Shown piece after piece: positions 7,159 through 25,344 of a stretch of 40,799 nt of DNA. The first letter of the stretch is position 1. Each line of letters begins with the position of its first letter. A program made the translations under genes and the position numbers. The stretch spans positions 1 through 40,799 of the forward strand of contig JAGXOH010000003.1 of the NCBI GenBank assembly GCA_023659985.1. The letters are read 5' to 3'. This DNA is from Candidatus Falkowbacteria bacterium LH_S3. Its GTDB lineage: Bacteria > Patescibacteriota > Patescibacteriia > Patescibacteriales > JAGXOH01. The notes beneath the pieces were generated by a model. It saw only the letters and a list, made by a program, of their open reading frames with translations. It ran no database searches and was not told the DNA's origin.

Positions 7159-7645
7159 GCAAAGCTTAATTGTTGAAAGTTGAAGGTTAAACGTTGAACG
7201 TTGAAGGTAAATTGAATTAAGCAAAGCATTTTAAATTAAGCAAAGCTTAATTGTTGAAGGTTGAAGGTTGAATGTTGAAAGAATAATTTGCCTTCTGCTA
7301 AATTGTTGAAAGTTGAAAGTTGAATGTTGAAAGTAAATTGAATTAAGCAGAGCTTAATTGTTGAAGGTTGAACGTTGAATGTTGAAAGAATAATTTGCCT
7401 TCGACAAATTGTTAAAAATTAAAAGTTGAACGTTGAAGGTTGAAAGAATAATTTGCCTTCTGCTAAATTGTTGAAGGTTGAAGGTTGAATGTTGAAGGTT
7501 GAAGGTTGAACGTTGAAAGAATAATTTGCCTTTGGCAAATTGTTGAAGGTTGAAGGTCGAACGTTGAAAGAATAATTTGCCTTCTGCTAAATTGTTGAAT
7601 GTTGAACGTTGAATGTTGAAAGAATCAATTGAATTAAGCAAAGTT
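7153..7645 (+). repeat. Composite tandem array of 19-20 nt hairpins alternating with (GTTGAAN)4-7
   Basis: About 10 hairpin units (AATTAAGC-AAA-GCTTAATT or AATTTGCC-TTC-[TGCT/GGC]AAATT), eight of them followed by GTTGAAN heptamer runs. Confidence 0.95.
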
Positions 7646-7656
7646 TAGAAAACATT

Positions 7657-10659: not shown

Positions 10660-11190
10660 AGAAAATTTGCCTTCGGCAAATTGTTGAAAGTTGAAAGTTG
10701 AAAGAATAATTTGCCTTCTGCTAAATTGTTGAAAGTTGAAAGCCGAATTCTGAAAGAAGAATTCCTTCGGAATTGCCGAATGCTGAATGCATAAAAATTA
10801 AAGATATTAAATATAGTTGAAACTCAAAATTCAAAACTTAAAACGTAAAACCAAAAGTCAAAATTCAAAACCAAAATTTAAATGAAATCCAAAATCCAAA
10901 AAATATGATTGAAACGTAAAACTCAAAGTTCAAAACGCAAAACCAAAAATTAAATAAAATCCAAAATCCAAAGCTCAAATGTCAAATAAATGTCAAATGA
11001 CTAAATGTCAAATGTTGTAATCTTGTAAATTATAAATTATATGCCGTGGGTTTCTGGCTTAATATTTTTATGCGTTCAGCGTTAAGCAGTCAAGCTTTGC
11101 TTGACTAATTTGGCATTAGGATTTTGGATTTCATTTGGCATTAGGATTTTGGCATTAGGATTTTAGTAAGTATTTGAGCTTTGACATTTT
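10660..11190. repeat. Composite heptamer/hairpin repeat region with an A-rich left arm and T-rich right arm
   Basis: AATTTGCCTTCGGCAAATT(GTTGAAA)n, then TCAAAAC, TCCAAAA and GTCAAAT runs, then complementary TTTGGCA, TTAGGAT and TTTGACA runs. Confidence 0.9.
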
Positions 11191-13168: not shown

Positions 13169-13170
13169 CT

Positions 13171-13400
13171 AAGAAAATTTGCTTTCAGCAAATTGCCAAA
13201 CGTTGAAAGTTGAAAGTTGAAAGAATAAATTGAATTAAGCAAAGCTTAATTGTTGAAGGTTGAAGGTCGAACGTTGAAGGTTGAAAGAAAAAAATGGTTA
13301 ATTATTGAAAGTTGAAAGAATAATTTGCCGAAGACAAATTTAATGCCAAATATATTCTTACAGCTTAGAGCTTTGAGCAATTTTCCTTAGGAGGAAAATT
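13171..13400 (+). repeat. Hairpin + (GTTGAAN)n array
   Basis: Same units as 7153-7645, including AATTAAGCAAAGCTTAATT and GTTGAAGGTCGAACGTTGAA. Confidence 0.9.
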
Positions 13401-14534: not shown

Positions 14535-14728
14535 GGTGAACAAGTTCAGATAGATTGGACTCCAAAACAACTAAAAAGTAAATGCAAATAGGATTTAAGT
14601 TTCATAATTACGGATTTGCTATATTGGGACAATTATTGGTACAATAATAGTAATTTGTGGATTATATTTTCGTCCAACTTATATCCAGTAGTGTTTTTTG
14701 ATTATTTGACCTTCATTTGACATTAAAT

Positions 14729-15136
14729 ATGTTTGAAACTCAAAACTCAAAGTTAAAAACGTAAAACCAAAACTCAAAATTCAAAACTGAATTAAAACAT
14801 CGTTGTTATTATTTTTCAATTCAAATAATCAAATTTTTAGAAACATTACCAGAAAAGAAAGTTTATTGGGTGATTTCAGACCAATTACTAAGATCAGCTA
14901 CTTCTATCGGAGCTAACATTGTTGAAGCTAAAGCATCAAGTTCTAAACGAGAATTTATTAAGTTTTATAAAATTGCTTTGAAGTCTGCCAACGAAACTAA
15001 ATATTGGCTAGGATTATTAAGAGATGCAACTCAGGCTGATAAAAAGAAAATTAACCAGATTTTATTAGAAGTTGAAGAAATATCAAAAATATTAGGTTCC
15101 AGTTTATTAACTTTGAAAAACAAGAAGGAGTTTTAA
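14729..15136 (+). pseudogene. Four-helix-bundle protein (23S rRNA IVS protein / Avd-like family), in-frame TAA at 14762-14764
   Basis: QLLRSATSIGANIVEA..SSSKREFIKFYKIALKSANETKYWL. The same frame upstream of the track ORF encodes SKFKTELKHRCYYFSIQIIKFL. Confidence 0.8.
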
Positions 15137-15345
15137 GTTTTAAGTTGTAGTTTTTAGCTTTAAGTTTTTAGCTTTAAGTTTTTAGCTTTAAGTTTTAAGC
15201 TTTAACATTTGACATTTGAGCTTTGACATTTAATTTGTTATTTAGTCATTTGAAATTCATTTGACATTAAGATTTTGTCATTTGGATTTTATTGTATGTC
15301 ATTAGGATTTTATTAAGTATTTGAGCTTTGGATTTTGGATTTCAA
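15131..15345. repeat. T-rich heptamer arm downstream of the four-helix-bundle gene
   Basis: GTTTTAA, GTTTTTA and GCTTTAA units, then CATTTGA units; complementary to the A-rich arm at 14735-14790. Confidence 0.9.
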
Positions 15346-15428
15346 TGTTACAATTGCAGCAATTAGGGTTACATTTTGGATTTCAAATAACTAAATGATA
15401 TAATAATTAATAGGTCTAATTAATAAGT

Positions 15429-18359
15429 ATGTTATTTATGACTATTTTTAAATTGCCACAGAAGAAGTTTATTTTTTTCAAATTATTGGTTTGCTCAATT
15501 TTTTGTTTTGTTTTTTTGTTTGCGATCGGCTTGAAAATTCCTGAATTTTTTACTGTAAAAAAAGCTTCTGCCACTATTGCCGAGTCCAGTAAATATCTGC
15601 CTTTAGATCCGGCTAACAAGAACATCAATATTAACGGTTACAATATAGAAATGTCAGGCGGTTGGCTTACTTATGATGGAGACAATGAAGGGATATACAT
15701 AGGAACAAACGGCAACGTAGGCATTGGCACCACTAGTCCCGCTTATAAGTTTCAAACCATGGGTTACGGTTATTTTTCCCAACCTGTAACTGTTGGCACC
15801 CCAACAGCAGACACCCATGTCACTACTAAGTCCTATGTAGATTCAGAGCTCCAAAGCGCTACTACCACAGTGGAAGACACCTATGTCAACGAATCTGGCG
15901 ACACCATGACTGGAGCTTTAGACATCCAGCAACCAGATACAGGCGATATATTTAACATTTCAAGTAGCACGGCAGGGGATTTGATGACTATAACCAATGC
16001 CGGCAACGTCGGCATCGGGACGACGGGACCAAGTAGAAAACTGGATGTAAATGGTGACATTAGAATAAGAGGGAATGACATCTTCGAATCCGGTAATAAT
16101 AATTTCTTAACAATGAATTACGATGATACTTCTCGTATGCGGACTCACAGGCTTGATATTGGTAGACACCTTGACGCATACAAAGACTGGGGTGGAGAAG
16201 GCGATACTCTATTCCTTGGTTGGTCCACCGCCAATAGTGTTCTTGGGTACAACGGAGCTAGCTCAGGAGATGTTGCAAATGTTGGTGTCTTGGTCACTCA
16301 GGACACTGCATTTAAAGGCAACGTCGGCATCGGCACCACCAATCCTTCCTATGCTCTGGATGTAGCAGGTTATGGTCAATTCTCCCAACCCGTAACTGTC
16401 GGTACTCCTATAGCAGATACCCATGCCACCACCAAGTCCTATGTGGATTCAGAGCTTTCAGAAGCTACCTCTACAGCAGAAAACACCTATGTTAACGAAT
16501 CAGGCGACACCATGACTGGAGCTTTAAACATGAATAGCAATATTGATCTCAACTCCAATACACTGTTTATAAATAAAGGTGATGGTTTAGAGATGGGTCG
16601 TGATGATAGTATATGTAGTAGTAATGATTGTTACTATTTAGCAAAAACAGATGCAAATGCTGCAGATCCGGACGGCGAATTTTCTATTGGCGAGAGAGGA
16701 AATGATGACATTTTTAACGCCTGGATGCATTTTGACAGCGGCAACGTCGGCATCGGGACGACAAATCCGAGTACAGCGTTGGAAGTAAATGGGATCTACG
16801 AGACTGGCTTGGGTAATAGTTACGATAAGATACGTGTGTATCCTTCCTCAAGTTACACTATTGGAATGAAATCAGCCCAAACATTGGGCTTTCTTAACGA
16901 CTGGGCGACTACTTTTACCATGAATGCTGATAATAACCGAGGTTGGCTCTGGAGAGATACCTCAGATGCTGCTTCTGATGGTGCCATGAGTTTAACGACT
17001 AATGGAAGATTATATGTAAAAAGTACGGCTGCATTTAGCGGCAACGTCGGCATCGGGACGACGGGGCCCGCTTACGCTCTGGATGTAGCAGGTTATGGTC
17101 AATTTGCTCAACCCGTAACTGTTGGCACCCCAACAGCAAATACGCACGCTGCCACCAAGAGTTATGTGGATAGTGAGATTGGATCAGTTAGCGATACCTA
17201 TGTTAACGAATCAGGCGACACCATGACTGGGAATTTGGCCTTTACTCCTACTGGACCTAGTGCTCAGATTGGAGATACTTTTGCTGATAATACCTACAAG
17301 AGTTATATTAATTTTAATGCTGGTTCTGGTTCAAATGATCCGGGGTATATTATGCATGAAACTTCTGGAACTAGTACTAATGAAGGGGTTTTGCATATTA
17401 TTCCTTCGGATGATAATCAGTATGGAGATTATGTCTCTATTCATGGAACCAACGATTCTGATATGATTAAACTTCATACCTCTGGAGATATTGAAGGGAT
17501 AAATACAATACGATTCCAAGATTCAGACAGAAGAATTTATGGAATATCATCGGACGGTAATGACACGGTAGTTATTGATGGAAATTGGAACGAGCTTCTC
17601 GAAATGGGGAGAGTGATTGGTTGGACAGGTTCAAATTTTTACATAGGATCTAACTGGGATACTGTAGATCACACTGATGATATGATAGAAATCGGCCGCG
17701 ATGTGGGACATCTCGAATTTGAAGATACCACTGGAGAAGTAATGAGAGTAACTGGAGGCAATGTCGGCATTGGAGCAACAGCACCTGCTGAAAAACTTGA
17801 AGTTGCAGGTAACATCAGGCTAGATGATGGCGGGGATGCGTATATTGAGAATCAGTCTGGTTATGTAGGTATTAGGCCGCATGATGCTACTCATGGTTTA
17901 ATTATGCGTGACTTTGACGGAAATAGCACCAATTGGAGTGGAATTCGGACTCAGGATGACGGAAGTATGGAACTGAGGGCGGATGGCGGGTCTTACAGTC
18001 AGCTTGTTTTAGCAGATAACGGCAATGTCGGCCTCGGGACGGCGAGTCCGGGGGCGAAGTTGGATGTAGCAGGCGGCGGGTCATTCGGCAACCCTGTGAC
18101 TGTCGGCACCCCAACAGCAGCAAGTCACGCCGCTACCAAAGATTATGTTGATTCTAATTTTGGGGGTGGTTCTTATAAAGCAAATACAGTTGATCAAGAT
18201 TATAGTGGGGGTTGCAATTGTGATAAAGATAATTGCGCTAGTGGATACGATAATGTGGATAATATTGATTGTACGATAACAAATTATTGTGTAAGTGATC
18301 AGTATGAATGTAGAGGATACGAAACATGTAGCTGCACTTGCAATGTTTGTGAAGAATAA
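15429..18359 (+). CDS. Large membrane-anchored fibre/adhesin-like protein with GNVGIGTT repeats
   Basis: N-terminal TM, 7 GNVG(I/L)G motifs, 4 TVGTP..HxxTKxYVD motifs, 3 YVNESGDTMTG motifs, Cys-rich C-terminus. Confidence 0.8.
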   Translation: MLFMTIFKLPQKKFIFFKLLVCSIFCFVFLFAIGLKIPEFFTVKKASATIAESSKYLPLDPANKNININGYNIEMSGGWLTYDGDNEGIYIGTNGNVGIGTTSPAYKFQTMGYGYFSQPVTVGTPTADTHVTTKSYVDSELQSATTTVEDTYVNESGDTMTGALDIQQPDTGDIFNISSSTAGDLMTITNAGNVGIGTTGPSRKLDVNGDIRIRGNDIFESGNNNFLTMNYDDTSRMRTHRLDIGRHLDAYKDWGGEGDTLFLGWSTANSVLGYNGASSGDVANVGVLVTQDTAFKGNVGIGTTNPSYALDVAGYGQFSQPVTVGTPIADTHATTKSYVDSELSEATSTAENTYVNESGDTMTGALNMNSNIDLNSNTLFINKGDGLEMGRDDSICSSNDCYYLAKTDANAADPDGEFSIGERGNDDIFNAWMHFDSGNVGIGTTNPSTALEVNGIYETGLGNSYDKIRVYPSSSYTIGMKSAQTLGFLNDWATTFTMNADNNRGWLWRDTSDAASDGAMSLTTNGRLYVKSTAAFSGNVGIGTTGPAYALDVAGYGQFAQPVTVGTPTANTHAATKSYVDSEIGSVSDTYVNESGDTMTGNLAFTPTGPSAQIGDTFADNTYKSYINFNAGSGSNDPGYIMHETSGTSTNEGVLHIIPSDDNQYGDYVSIHGTNDSDMIKLHTSGDIEGINTIRFQDSDRRIYGISSDGNDTVVIDGNWNELLEMGRVIGWTGSNFYIGSNWDTVDHTDDMIEIGRDVGHLEFEDTTGEVMRVTGGNVGIGATAPAEKLEVAGNIRLDDGGDAYIENQSGYVGIRPHDATHGLIMRDFDGNSTNWSGIRTQDDGSMELRADGGSYSQLVLADNGNVGLGTASPGAKLDVAGGGSFGNPVTVGTPTAASHAATKDYVDSNFGGGSYKANTVDQDYSGGCNCDKDNCASGYDNVDNIDCTITNYCVSDQYECRGYETCSCTCNVCEE

Positions 18360-18393
18360 ATTTAACCGGTGGTTTTTCGGGTTACCCATTTTA

Positions 18394-18538
18394 AATTAAG
18401 CAAAACTTAGAAAATTTGCTTTCAGCAAATTGTTGAAAGTTGAAAGTTCAAAGCTACAACTTAAAGCTTAAAACTCAAAATTTCTTAACAATGTTTTAAT
18501 TCAGTTTTGAACTTTGAGTTTTGCGTTTCAACTATATT
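18394..18538 (-). repeat. Hairpin/GTTGAAA unit plus an empty (gene-less) four-helix-bundle cassette
   Basis: Reverse complement of 18487-18511 matches 14780-14804 at 24/25 nt and is joined directly to the cassette's 3' arm sequence. Confidence 0.8.
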
Positions 18539-18660
18539 TTATGTTATAATTAATTTAAAGGTCGATTTATGTATTTTATAATTAACATACTTAAAAATTA
18601 ATTAATTGGGTATTTTGTTGGCAGTAGCTAAGCCAACAAAGGCCTTTCCTTTATTAAATT

Positions 18661-19389
18661 ATGGAAGACACAAAAAAGAAGATTTTTATTGTTGTTGCTA
18701 TTTTGGTAGTAGTCGGCATAGTCGGCTATTTACTGCTTAGTAATCAGCAGGTAAAGGAATCTTTACAACCACAAGAGCAACAAGAAGGAGAAAATATGAC
18801 TGAAGCTTCTGAAGAGATGAACGAGGAAGCTGCGAAAGAGACTGAAAATCTTATAGAAGAAGCTCAACAGAAAGCGCAAGAACAAGGAACAAGCACCAGG
18901 AACGAGGTAACTTGGCAGGAAGAAGGCGAGGGAACCTCTACGAAATCTAAAACTGGAGTCAGAATGGCTGAAGGAGGTAGTCCCATAGATACCCAAACTG
19001 GCAAAGTGGTTACAGAAGAAGGAGAAAAAGCAGATAATGCGGCTACTCCTGGATCTCCGGAAGCTCCAACTCAGTCTTTTACTACTAGTGAAGAAGATCT
19101 TCCTGAGAGTACTGTCAAAATGAAAATTACGCAGTCAAGTATTGATCCTGCTGAATTTTCTGTCAGTCCTGGCCAAGCCGTATCTATATCAGTTACTGCG
19201 GCAGGAGATGCTACTGAGATTTTCAGATTTGACGATCCATCTTTAGAAGGTGTAGCTGTAGGCGTAGCTCCGGGAAAGACTCGGGCTATAACCTTTAACG
19301 CCCCGACTGACACAGGTGACTACACTTATTATTCAGACGTTGCCAATCACAGAGCGTTAGGAGCTAAAGGAGTGATGATTGTAGAGTAG
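18661..19389 (+). CDS. Membrane-anchored cupredoxin-like domain protein
   Basis: N-terminal TM and acidic linker, then PAEFSVSPGQAV...ITFNAP..GDYTYYSDVANHRALGAKGVMIVE. Confidence 0.8.
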   Translation: MEDTKKKIFIVVAILVVVGIVGYLLLSNQQVKESLQPQEQQEGENMTEASEEMNEEAAKETENLIEEAQQKAQEQGTSTRNEVTWQEEGEGTSTKSKTGVRMAEGGSPIDTQTGKVVTEEGEKADNAATPGSPEAPTQSFTTSEEDLPESTVKMKITQSSIDPAEFSVSPGQAVSISVTAAGDATEIFRFDDPSLEGVAVGVAPGKTRAITFNAPTDTGDYTYYSDVANHRALGAKGVMIVE

Positions 19390-19408
19390 GCTAAATTTGA
19401 TCAATGTT

Positions 19409-19443
19409 AAAAGCTCCCTTTCTTTATAGAGGGGGAGTTTTTT
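19409..19443 (+). terminator. Intrinsic terminator
   Basis: GCTCCCTTTCT/AGAGGGGGAGT stem followed by a T run. Confidence 0.7.
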
Positions 19444-19508
19444 GTAGCCAATGATGTGATACAATATAGTTGAATGTCAAAGCTAAAAACTAAAAGCTAA
19501 AGGTTGAA

Positions 19509-19802
19509 TGTCATATGAAATCGGTGCACCTATTTTTCGACCTTTGATTGATTTTGAATGATAGTTTTTTAATCAATTTAGATTTTTGTTCTTTCTCAAA
19601 ATAGAGTTGTTCTTGTTTGAGATTCCATTCAGCTAAGACAAAATAGTTAACGTAGGATTTGGGCAGAAATACTTCTCATTGAAATGATTTTTCTTTGTTC
19701 ATAGAATTTAGTAGATTAGAATTAATTTTCAAAGTCGAGTAATTATAGTCTATTAATACTCTGAACAAAAATCAACTTAAGGTGCTACGATTTTATTTGG
19801 CT
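19509..19802 (-). mobile_element. Internally deleted IS remnant (MITE-like) with imperfect terminal inverted repeats
   Basis: TGTCATATGAAATCGGTGCACCT versus the reverse complement of 19780-19802 match at 17/23. The minus strand has a start MNKEKS joined to a C-terminal fragment EVFLPKSYVNYFVLAEWNLK...CTDFI*. Confidence 0.55.
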
Positions 19803-19809
19803 AATAGCC

Positions 19810-19930
19810 GCTAAAAGCTAAAAACTACAACTTAAAACTTAAATCTTAAAATTTCTTAACGATGTTTTAATTCAGTTTTGAATTTTGAGTTTTGGTTTTG
19901 ACTTTTGACTTTTGAGTTTCAACTATATTT
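19810..19930 (-). repeat. Empty four-helix-bundle cassette
   Basis: 19858-19899 is the exact reverse complement of 14763-14804 (42 nt); 19814-19843 is the exact reverse complement of 15132-15161 (30 nt). Confidence 0.9.
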
Positions 19931-19958
19931 CATATATCATTTGTATTTTTTAAAAATA

Positions 19959-24779: not shown

Positions 24780-25344
24780 AATAAAATCCAAAATCCAAAA
24801 TCCTAATGTCAAATGAAATCCAAAATCCAAATGACAAATTAAATATAGTTGAAACTCAAAACTCAAAAGTCAAAAGTCAAAACCAAAACTCAAAATTCAA
24901 AACCAAAATTTAAATGAAATCCAAAATCCAAAATCCTAATGCCAAATGAAATCCAAAATCCAAATGCCAAATTAGTCAAGCAAAGCTTGACTGCTCAACG
25001 CTGAACGCATAAAGATTAAAGATATTAAAAATAGGAACCTATGTTTATTCATTTGACATTTGAGCTTTGACATTTGACCTTCATTTGACATTTGAGCTTT
25101 GTCATTTGGATTTTATTGTATGACATTAGGATTTTGACATTAGGATTTTATTAAGTAGAAGTTTTAAGTTTTAAGTTGTAGCTTTTAGCTTTGAGTTTTT
25201 AGCTTTAAGTTCTGACATTTGACATTTATTCATTTGGATTTCATTTGTCATTTGGATTTTGTCATTTGGATTTTATTAAGTAGAAGTTTTAAGTTTTAAG
25301 TTGTAGCTTTTAGCTTTTAGCTTTAAGTTCTGACATTTGACATT
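24780..25344. repeat. Large composite inverted heptamer repeat
   Basis: A-rich arm (TCCAAAA, GTCAAAT, CTCAAAA), hairpin AGTCAAGC-AAA-GCTTGACT, then a T-rich arm with an internal duplication of about 70 nt. Confidence 0.92.

Follow-up and report, generated by a model that had tools for sequence, protein, structure and literature searches.

The four-helix-bundle cassette of the window

The 40,799-nucleotide stretch of DNA analysed here (hereafter the window) belongs to the assembly of Candidatus Falkowbacteria bacterium LH_S3 (genome G000; 803,827 bases in 116 contigs, 34% G+C, 77.5% complete), and its main subject is a cassette, by which we mean the open reading frame (ORF) of a four-helix-bundle gene (4HB; TIGR02436/PF05635) together with two inverted arms built of heptamers. 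On the + strand, the A-rich upstream arm (14722-14804) consists of a terminal motif, a run of ACTCAAA-type heptamers and an 18-nt loop module (14787-14804), and Tandem Repeats Finder (TRF) places within it a period-7 array at 14736-14788 with 7.7 copies and 74% matches. The T-rich downstream arm (15129-15205, + strand; period 7, 11.1 copies, 77% matches by TRF), made of AGTTTTA/AGCTTTA heptamers, is complementary to the upstream arm and overlaps the final codons and the stop of the 4HB frame. The best local alignment between the two flanks (66/69 nt) scores 24.5, against 12.6 for the 99th percentile of shuffled flanks. A single 6-nt unit can be read in each arm, AAACCA upstream and AGTTGT downstream. 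The succession of A-rich arm, 4HB gene and complementary T-rich arm, with one hexameric interruption in each arm, had been described in a first-pass annotation made from the letters of the window, and the TRF arrays, the flank alignment and the two 6-nt units all agree with it.

The same annotation had the upstream arm running into the coding frame. This holds in that the arm is in frame from the ATG at 14729, the sole ATG in frame with the window 4HB domain, but the frame is interrupted by a TAA at 14762-14764, so that start, 10 further codons and stop (14729-14764, + strand) all fall within the upstream arm. The TAA lies in an ACGTAAA unit where several other copies read ACGCAAA. After it, the 4HB reading frame continues without internal stop for 123 codons (14765-15136, + strand; domain 14798-15115, stop 15134-15136), and the next canonical start in the ORF list is the GTG at 14870, whose use would remove helix 1 of the structural model. 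The window thus holds no intact, translatable 4HB gene at this position, and because the only ATG precedes the TAA and the next start deletes helix 1, the copy has probably been inactivated by the TAA 11 codons past its only ATG.

The encoded protein matches TIGR02436 with an E-value of 5.9e-29 (100.5 bits, cut-off 24) and PF05635 (23S_rRNA_IVP) with 89.3 bits (cut-off 33.8), while the Avd profile of diversity-generating retroelements (DGRs), NF033474, gives an E-value of 0.0027 and 18 bits, far below its cut-off of 80. The AlphaFold model, built with 16 sequences, has four helices and a pLDDT of 92.1, and its top Foldseek matches are 2RLD (BT_0352; TM 0.80-0.90) and 2GSC (Xcc0516; TM 0.78-0.85), two family structures with 5 chains each; Xcc0516 is stated to be a pentamer (PMC4990558). 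The next structural matches are Avd itself (4DWL, TM 0.75/0.83) and, likewise, the DGR ribonucleoprotein 8UB7. The kinship named by the annotation is seen at two levels, with the 23S rRNA intervening sequence (IVS) family by profile and with Avd by fold, the latter being weak in sequence. A polar stripe Q..R...S...N..E followed by a later E runs through the family alignment, in which Q, R, S, N and E66 are invariant; the window copy has these residues and also the E of the N..E motif, so that all family-invariant residues are kept. Neither the model nor the fold search matched the window protein to any known catalytic fold.

The window 4HB gene has as its neighbours a gene with a metallo-beta-lactamase fold and an ORF of 976 aa. 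The repeat block goes on to the next gene through heptamer arrays that belong to other families (TTTGACA, TTTGGAT; 15201-15342, + strand, TRF), and Rfam matches in the window are confined to tRNAs, with rRNA absent. Sequencing runs of RNA were looked for, and none was found for this organism. In three DNA runs of one study, the assembled short contigs break at the repeats; X3 yields a joint 14724->15274 with only 20 letters on the shorter side, which may derive from another repeat copy. One other 4HB gene was found in G000, on contig C37, intact and flanked by a different heptamer pair, a count that may be too low since the assembly is fragmented at exactly these repeats.

Gene-less copies and the genome-wide repeat family

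Two further copies in the window, both on the - strand, carry both arms joined via the loop module, with the gene body missing. The first (18436-18545) lies between two + strand genes, and the second (19806-19933) stops 26 nt short of the next gene's start codon (19959). The two are 88% alike over 86 nt (18443-18528 versus 19814-19899) and align in reverse complement with either end of the full copy (83 nt at 81%, 42 nt at 90% and 36 nt at 94%), and in BLAST the second is identical to the full copy over 42 nt (19899-19858) and 30 nt (19843-19814). At the junction, the non-repetitive 18-nt loop (14787-14804 in the full copy) is followed by a variable AAGAAGT run and then by the T-rich arm. BLAST and alignment thus recover the two empty copies, the 42- and 30-nt identities and the shared junction reported earlier, but the junction is not the property of these two copies only: a 31-nt version of it, followed by a variable number of AAGAAGT units, has 12 occurrences on 11 contigs of G000, and the 18-nt loop module has 26 occurrences (at most 2 mismatches) on 18 contigs, with the gene body following only once. 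Counted by loop module, gene-less copies accordingly outnumber full copies by about 25 to 1, and the suggestion that the element is dispersed is borne out by gene-less copies with both arms and loop module on at least 18 contigs.

The 18-mer of the full copy codes for the residues with which helix 1 begins, and it is similar to the 5' end of the coding sequence in the nearest 4HB genes of relatives; this favours the view, without proving it, that the gene-less form arose when the gene body was lost. For the + and - strands, predicted RNA folds reach -22.3 kcal/mol (z -2.9) and -19.5 (z -1.6), respectively, in the first gene-less copy and -21.2 kcal/mol (z -1.9) and -13.7 (z +0.4) in the second, the transcribed strand giving the better fold in both.

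The arms are members of a genome-wide repeat family and are not private to the 4HB gene. The genome-wide BLASTN of both ends, proposed in the annotation as a count of full versus empty copies, returned 83 high-scoring segment pairs (HSPs) on 33 of 116 contigs for the left arm and 217 HSPs on 52 of 116 contigs for the right arm, and only one match, itself, for the gene body. Merged period-7 arrays in G000 number 473, belong to several unit families, cover 2.28% of bases and occupy 80 of 311 intergenic gaps, about a quarter; at 58.8 per 100 kb, their density is the highest of the genomes measured. Among co-directional gaps with arrays (n=31), the sense strand is the more stable in 20 versus 10 (p 0.017). 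Many arm matches stand in the first or last 200 bases of contigs, so that these repeats are probably to blame for much of the break-up of the assembly into 116 contigs.

Recurrence of the cassette in other genomes

The counts given here are inflated by sample overlap and relatedness, with crude ORF calls (longest ORFs) and arrays defined by TRF thresholds. Of 41 related genomes, 31 have TIGR02436 genes, and a single genome of about 1 Mb can have as many as 15. In a first set of 30 loci, from which L020 was left out (gene at contig end), 27 of 29 4HB flank pairs were complementary above the shuffled 99th percentile, with a median score of 21 for cognate and 9 for non-cognate pairs. In a second sample of 254 kb, a score of at least 13 was reached by 22 of 23 4HB ORFs and by 25 of 219 other ORFs. 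When the search started from arrays instead, all 21 inverted array pairs lying 345-659 nt apart enclosed a 4HB gene, as did none of the six pairs 1216-1492 nt apart, and 11 further pairs formed gene-less hairpins with less than 100 nt between the arms.

The layout extends well beyond close relatives. In public genomes with names, most of them Patescibacteria from many classes, such inverted arms flank 67 of the 76 loci that could be evaluated, all 67 with period 7, in a sample of 80 loci of which 4 were dropped, at least 5 duplicate earlier loci and some carry taxon labels that look unreliable. Plasmid copies from outside Patescibacteria have inverted heptamer arms in 8 of 10 cases, each with a unit of its own (Calothrix, three Nostoc/Anabaena strains, Geminocystis, Picosynechococcus, Riemerella and Azospirillum); the cyanobacterial and Azospirillum plasmids are GC-richer, and their heptamers are unrelated. 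A gene with two inverted heptamer arms is thus supported as a recurrent unit in relatives, in Patescibacteria at large and in three other phyla, and the test of 7-nt periodicity around TIGR02436-type genes suggested in the annotation gave enrichment (22/23 versus 25/219; 67/76). The annotation had also named what would undo its proposal, namely a lack of further copies in the genome, of empty orthologous sites in relatives and of arm enrichment beside family members; all three were examined, and none of these lacks was encountered.

Several of the named records (within L051-L130) are titled 'uncultured Gammaproteobacteria' or 'Bdellovibrionales', while their 4HB proteins are 61-75% identical to Patescibacteria proteins and their G+C is low, and these labels may be unreliable. 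In the plasmid copy of Pseudanabaena (L135, between cas6 and cas4), the arrays are long and direct, made of AAAAGCT units upstream (14 or more) and AAAAGCC units downstream, and those of the PCC 7120 gamma plasmid copy are non-complementary.

Sequence properties of the arms

Period, stop and arm-energy counts were taken from 51 cassettes of relatives, 2 of 53 being left out for short flanks or N. The period is 7 in 37-38 of them, 8 in 6-8 and 9 in 2-4, and the array units have a conserved 4-nt core and three variable positions. Within three arm families, the cognate downstream arm is the best partner at 12 of 21, 18 of 33 and 3 of 5 loci; since the cognate partner matches best within its arm family, the two arms co-vary unit by unit. 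Within a single protein subfamily (61-79% identity), the arms differ widely in sequence, with units such as GAATnnn, GTATnnn and GTAGnnn.

The arms are also polar. The 5' arm is purine-rich on both strands, G facing C 595 times versus 134 times the reverse, and stop triplets average 8.2 per cassette on the inward strand and 4.5 on the outward strand (inward greater in 37, smaller in 8), with the same polarity in the wide sample (inward greater in 42, smaller in 18). As the period is 7, a stop contained in the unit reaches all three frames within three units. Arms of ATGAATN type (L008, L011, L012, L014, L033 and many loci of the named records) carry an overlapping ATG/TGA (ATGA) in every unit and thus provide start and stop in all three frames, and the start codon of the 4HB gene is the last such ATG.

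RNA-specific pairing of the arms was considered as a candidate and rejected, neither mismatch types nor strand energies bearing a signature of it. In 111 distinct arm pairs, the sense-strand mismatches comprise 79 of G.U type, 96 of A.C type and 258 others, and duplex energy favours the sense strand in 31 versus 20 of 51 cassettes (Wilcoxon p 0.085). Because there is no clear energy difference between sense and antisense and no G.U excess, the complementarity of the arms may be kept by a process acting at the DNA level.

Genomic context and signs of spread

Of 50 cassettes, 46 are co-directional with both neighbours, at median gaps of 80 and 45 nt, which leave no room for separate promoter and terminator signals. 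Positions inside operons recur on plasmids, where the 4HB gene stands twice in the order cas6-4HB-cas4, once as cmr2-4HB-cmr3 and once between nrdB and nrdA in antisense orientation. The spacer between tRNA-Val and tRNA-Ala of the congener G001 is taken up by a cassette whose termini abut the tRNAs, and ahead of tRNA-Pro stands a gene-less hairpin that shares these termini. The corresponding tRNA-Val/tRNA-Ala spacer of the window has arrays but no 4HB gene; the window 4HB gene lies downstream of the next gene, where G001 has short arrays only. G000 and G001 hence have 4HB genes at different sites of one syntenic block, with a neighbour protein 58% identical, and the two genomes are too diverged for insertion boundaries to be set at base level.

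Retention at orthologous sites with homologous flanks was found across genomes for L003/L005/L007 and for L008/L009. At L003, L005 and L007, the cassette is placed between genes whose products look like hydrogenase subunits (a putative assignment), the position at which 7-bp-repeat hairpins are reported in cyanobacteria, in the hupS-hupL spacer (PMC2670836). On contig C1 of genome G039, two loci 11 kb apart (L019 and L043) have ORFs that differ by 1 mismatch, with diverged arms and unrelated flanks, a pattern that points to recent copying or conversion of the ORF together with no more than the innermost repeat units. The identical stretch of these two loci is bounded by a 9-nt inverted pair (AGGTAATAG / CTATTACCT).

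The annotation had proposed spread without an obvious transposase, and this stands as far as it was searched: profile searches of the 77.5%-complete G000 gave no RVT_1 match for a reverse transcriptase (RT) and no Y1_Tnp match for a Y1 (HUH) transposase, the latter being the only transposase family covered. In relatives, RVT_1 occurs in 13 of 31 4HB-positive and 5 of 10 4HB-negative genomes and is thus unrelated to 4HB presence, and Y1_Tnp occurs in 15 of 31 and 4 of 10, respectively. On these distributions and their absence from G000, two candidates were rejected, namely a telomerase-like or DGR-type origin of the arms, prompted by the purine-rich inward strand, and an analogy with repetitive extragenic palindromes (REP) and their RAYT transposases as a requirement.

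Association of the gene family with period-7 arrays

Array density was measured in stretches picked regardless of 4HB genes. Among closer relatives (10 versus 10 genomes, each sampled over the initial 20 kb of contigs 1 and 2, with stretches below 10 kb left out of per-genome medians only), 4HB-rich genomes have 28.3 period-7 arrays per 100 kb and 4HB-negative genomes 7.2, and 82 of 83 arrays lie far from any 4HB gene. In a phylum-wide sample, where 92 of 150 genomes at least 90% complete have a 4HB gene, genomes that have five or more 4HB genes reach a density of 42.1 per 100 kb, and genomes without one 4.0 (20 versus 20 genomes; first 20 kb of contig 1, stretches below 15 kb left out of per-genome medians only), with a Mann-Whitney p of 3.6e-5 that, related genomes not being independent, overstates the case and, like the other p-values, is to be read as an upper bound on the strength of evidence. 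The sampled stretches held only 3 4HB genes, and G+C is similar in 4HB-rich and 4HB-negative genomes. At other periods the two groups differ little, or less (rich versus negative, 6.0 versus 3.4 for period 6, 13.4 versus 6.8 for period 8, 9.8 versus 12.2 for period 9, and 14.5 versus 13.4 for periods 5, 10 and 11). In the rich genomes, 63 of 154 arrays have an inverted partner within 600 nt and 91 do not. The gene family and the arrays belong together, and the protein as an actor on the arrays and the protein as mere cargo both fit this; binding of the arms by the 4HB protein would be consistent with the genome-level co-occurrence.

Comparison with intervening sequences and other known systems

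The architecture, its recurrence, the co-variation of the arms, their position inside operons and the genome-level link to period 7 lead us to prefer, at roughly even chances, the reading that the locus is a member of a widespread cassette class working like the ORF-bearing IVSs of 23S rRNA. In such a cassette, two inverted arrays of 7-nt (rarely 8- or 9-nt) units make up a long stem whose loop contains the 4HB ORF, the whole being set in a short transcribed spacer. The cassette would be co-transcribed with its neighbours, the arms would pair within the transcript and, by analogy, RNase III would cut the stem, releasing the ORF RNA and separating the flanking RNAs, while the purine-rich, stop-rich arms that read inward might serve to halt ribosomes entering from either side. 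Gene-less copies would be the same hairpin without cargo, the commoner state, and their excess of about 25 to 1 over the full copy suggests that they persist and multiply on their own. Spread would probably proceed by recombination or gene conversion between arrays of the same family and not through a transposase.

ORF-bearing 23S IVSs occur in Coxiella, Leptospira and others. The analogy rests on the Coxiella 23S IVS, which has tandem GACAGAT heptamers before the S23p ORF in numbers varying between strains, a 28-bp terminal stem and an RNase III cleavage mapped to the first repeat (PMC4990558). ORF-less and ORF-decayed versions of the 23S IVS exist as well (PMC4990558), and 23S_rRNA_IVP ORFs occur in 16S and 23S insertions of CPR bacteria (PMC11270868). 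The window cassette resembles an ORF-bearing IVS in its protein family, its stem-forming termini and its heptamers 5' of the ORF. Unlike an IVS, it lies outside rRNA, between protein genes, both of its arms are whole heptamer arrays, and it is accompanied by dozens of dispersed gene-less copies. The RNase III cut, known for the Coxiella IVS, is only proposed for the window cassette; an RNase III (rnc) gene is present in G000.

A second comparison is with heptameric intergenic repeats. Cyanobacterial STRR hairpins stand between hupS and hupL, and their function is called unknown (PMC2670836); in Xanthomonas, (GGGANTN)n repeats form 70-75 convergent pairs, most of them transcribed, and Rehm et al. 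describe units with a conserved core and variable positions (PMC4692102). These repeats and the arrays described here are alike as 7-nt, dispersed, hairpin-capable intergenic units, often inside operons. Unlike the arrays of those papers, inverted pairs here with a spacing of about 350-450 nt always enclose a 4HB gene, and array density tracks the gene family; words for the 4HB/S23p family have 0 occurrences in PMC4692102 and PMC4679880.

With Avd, the window protein shares the fold and a weak sequence similarity (NF033474, as above), and it differs in its 18 bits against the required 80, in the lack of RVT_1 matches in G000 and in the independence of RT and 4HB presence. MITEs (miniature transposable elements with inverted repeats), REP sequences and bacterial interspersed mosaic elements (BIMEs), and Correia-type repeats are short, dispersed, hairpin-forming, co-transcribed intergenic elements that outnumber a coding parent. 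The gene-less hairpins of the window are likewise short, dispersed, intergenic and hairpin-forming, are probably co-transcribed and outnumber their coding parent, whereas their arms are tandem heptamers in place of unique inverted repeats, the coding parent is a non-enzymatic 4HB gene, and no Y1/RAYT was found in G000.

Several observations weigh against the IVS-like reading. The mismatches in the arms are not biased toward G.U, and there is no clear difference between sense and antisense duplex energies. Two of the ten plasmid copies and L030 have direct or non-complementary arrays, and 3 of 50 cassettes, along with the Nostoc edaphicum copy, are antisense to their neighbours. In G000, most abundant array families (GTTGAAA, AAATCCA, AAATGTC) lack a resident 4HB gene with matching arms, and the window copy, lacking an intact start, gives no sign of the protein being needed here. 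The non-independence of related genomes, given above with the densities, counts on the same side.

Alternative explanations

An explanation that we regard as unlikely, and yet the strongest of the rivals, is a DNA-level mobile element, whose arms would be terminal inverted repeats or cruciform/hairpin substrates and whose gene-less copies would be MITE-like, the pentameric 4HB protein being its own structure-specific DNA-binding factor and host enzymes providing catalysis. It would explain why a non-repetitive 18-nt module recurs at 26 places (18 contigs), only one of them a full copy, why the 4HB genes of the congeners G000 and G001 occupy different positions within one syntenic block, and why a full and a gene-less copy in G001 share their termini; the absence of wobble bias among arm mismatches has a Watson-Crick, DNA-level look, and the polarity of G facing C (595 versus 134) on both strands is a property of a DNA duplex. 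Against it, no target-site duplication was seen by eye in 12 junction copies (no systematic search was made), genomes of different families have retained cassettes at orthologous sites, the fold of the protein is not a known catalytic one, Y1 and RT are distributed in relatives as given above and neither was found in G000, and in G039 the recently copied part is the ORF, not the arms.

Ranking below this in probability is a non-mobile system of protein and repeats, in which the 4HB pentamer would bind period-7 RNA or DNA throughout the genome as a chaperone, stabiliser or regulator and its own gene would be flanked by binding sites for autoregulation. The tenfold, period-7-specific excess of arrays in 4HB-rich genomes, measured in stretches with only 3 4HB genes, agrees with such a role, as do the structural relatives 4DWL and 8UB7 (Avd in the DGR ribonucleoprotein) and units with a conserved 4-nt core and three variable positions, as in (GGGANTN)n. 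Less easily reconciled with it are arm sequences that vary widely within one protein subfamily, and the fact that G000 is the densest in arrays (58.8 per 100 kb) but was found to have one intact and one interrupted 4HB gene.

Generic slippage-prone simple repeats or terminator hairpins in AT-rich spacers, with the 4HB gene among them by chance, would suit the 80 of 311 G000 gaps with a period-7 array, the 473 arrays over 2.3% of the genome and the 91 of 154 arrays elsewhere that have no inverted partner, but this is very improbable and already largely refuted by the complementary flanks of 22/23 4HB ORFs versus 25/219 other ORFs, by the 21/21 array pairs at cassette spacing that hold a 4HB gene, by the same layout with unrelated heptamers in GC-richer cyanobacterial and Azospirillum plasmids, by the specificity of the excess in 4HB-rich genomes for period 7 and by arms without the G+C-rich stem of intrinsic terminators.

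A bolder proposal, which we put forward as a speculation with odds clearly against it, is that TIGR02436 proteins and heptamer arrays form one self-propagating system, the pentamer recognising period-7 stems, as RNA or as extruded DNA, and promoting their copying or conversion into new spacers. Were this true, the unexplained heptamer repeats of many bacteria, such as the cyanobacterial STRR, the Xanthomonas GGGAATC repeats and the present arrays, would be the footprint of a mobile-element family lacking any known kind of transposase.

Known and new aspects

The protein family, its fold and its pentameric state are already known, as are its presence in rRNA IVSs, the heptamers of one IVS, the heptamer simple sequence repeats (SSRs) and inverted pairs of cyanobacteria and Xanthomonas, and 4HB genes inside cas operons. 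In the literature searched, with supplements and subscription journals outside the search, the only printed link between the 4HB family and heptamer or tandem repeats is a single-species remark in PMC4990558. What is new here is the rule across phyla, its extension outside rRNA, the gene-less families and a genome-level association specific to period 7. The rule is that a 4HB gene stands between inverted heptamer arrays, with array density about tenfold higher where the gene family is present.

An explanation would thereby be gained for heptameric repeats, which are over-represented in many bacterial genomes and whose function the literature calls unknown, for the 'four helix bundle protein / S23p / IVS protein' family, with solved structures and no assigned function, and for 4HB genes wedged in cas, nrd, hydrogenase-like and tRNA operons. 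Zhang and Ye (2013) found 18 23S_rRNA_IVP genes wedged between cas genes and read them as having CRISPR-associated functions (PMC3936711), whereas the heptamer arms flanking 4HB genes of cas operons suggest insertions of the cassette. In practical terms, arrays at many contig ends probably break metagenome assemblies, heptamer arrays can mimic CRISPR-like periodic repeats, and heptamer-armed cassettes can mislead the annotation of 4HB genes by 'guilt by association'.

Further repeats of the window

Additional members of the arm families are scattered over the window. A solitary arm-like array of AAAGCTA units, of the right-arm family, occupies 19466-19510 (+ strand; self-alignment, TRF), and another left-arm copy (10806-10871, + strand; BLAST 89% over 66 nt) lies in the nested repeat block 10806-11165. 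A gene-less composite at 24838-25211 (+ strand) joins a left-arm copy (24838-24903) and a right-arm copy (25160-25211), matched by BLAST at 88% and 96%, and is nested within outer AAATCCA/GGATTT arrays. In the nested composites 10806-11165 and 24780-25344, outer AAATCCA/GGATTT and AAATGNC/GNCATTT arrays surround inner ACTCAAA/TTTTAAG arrays, and both share, in opposite orientation, a central non-repetitive module of about 40 nt (TAGTCAAGCAAAGCTTGACT...).

A second modular repeat occurs at 7159-7656 and also at 10660-10745, 13170-13340 and 18405-18453. It consists of a 19-nt palindromic hairpin of the AATTTGCC..GGCAAATT or AATTAAGC..GCTTAATT type, followed by 3-5 direct GTTGAAN heptamers. Up to eight such modules stand in a row within one intergenic gap, and they also follow tRNA-Ile and tRNA-Val; GTTGAAN is the commonest heptamer family in G000, with 67 TRF rows. 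TTGACAT arrays (15201-15268, 25048-25108) place the sigma-70 -35 hexamer TTGACA every 7 nt. The 976-aa ORF next to the cassette (15429-18359), which has no Pfam match, is internally repetitive, with repeats of about 606 nt, and a motif of GNVGIGTT type recurs in it.

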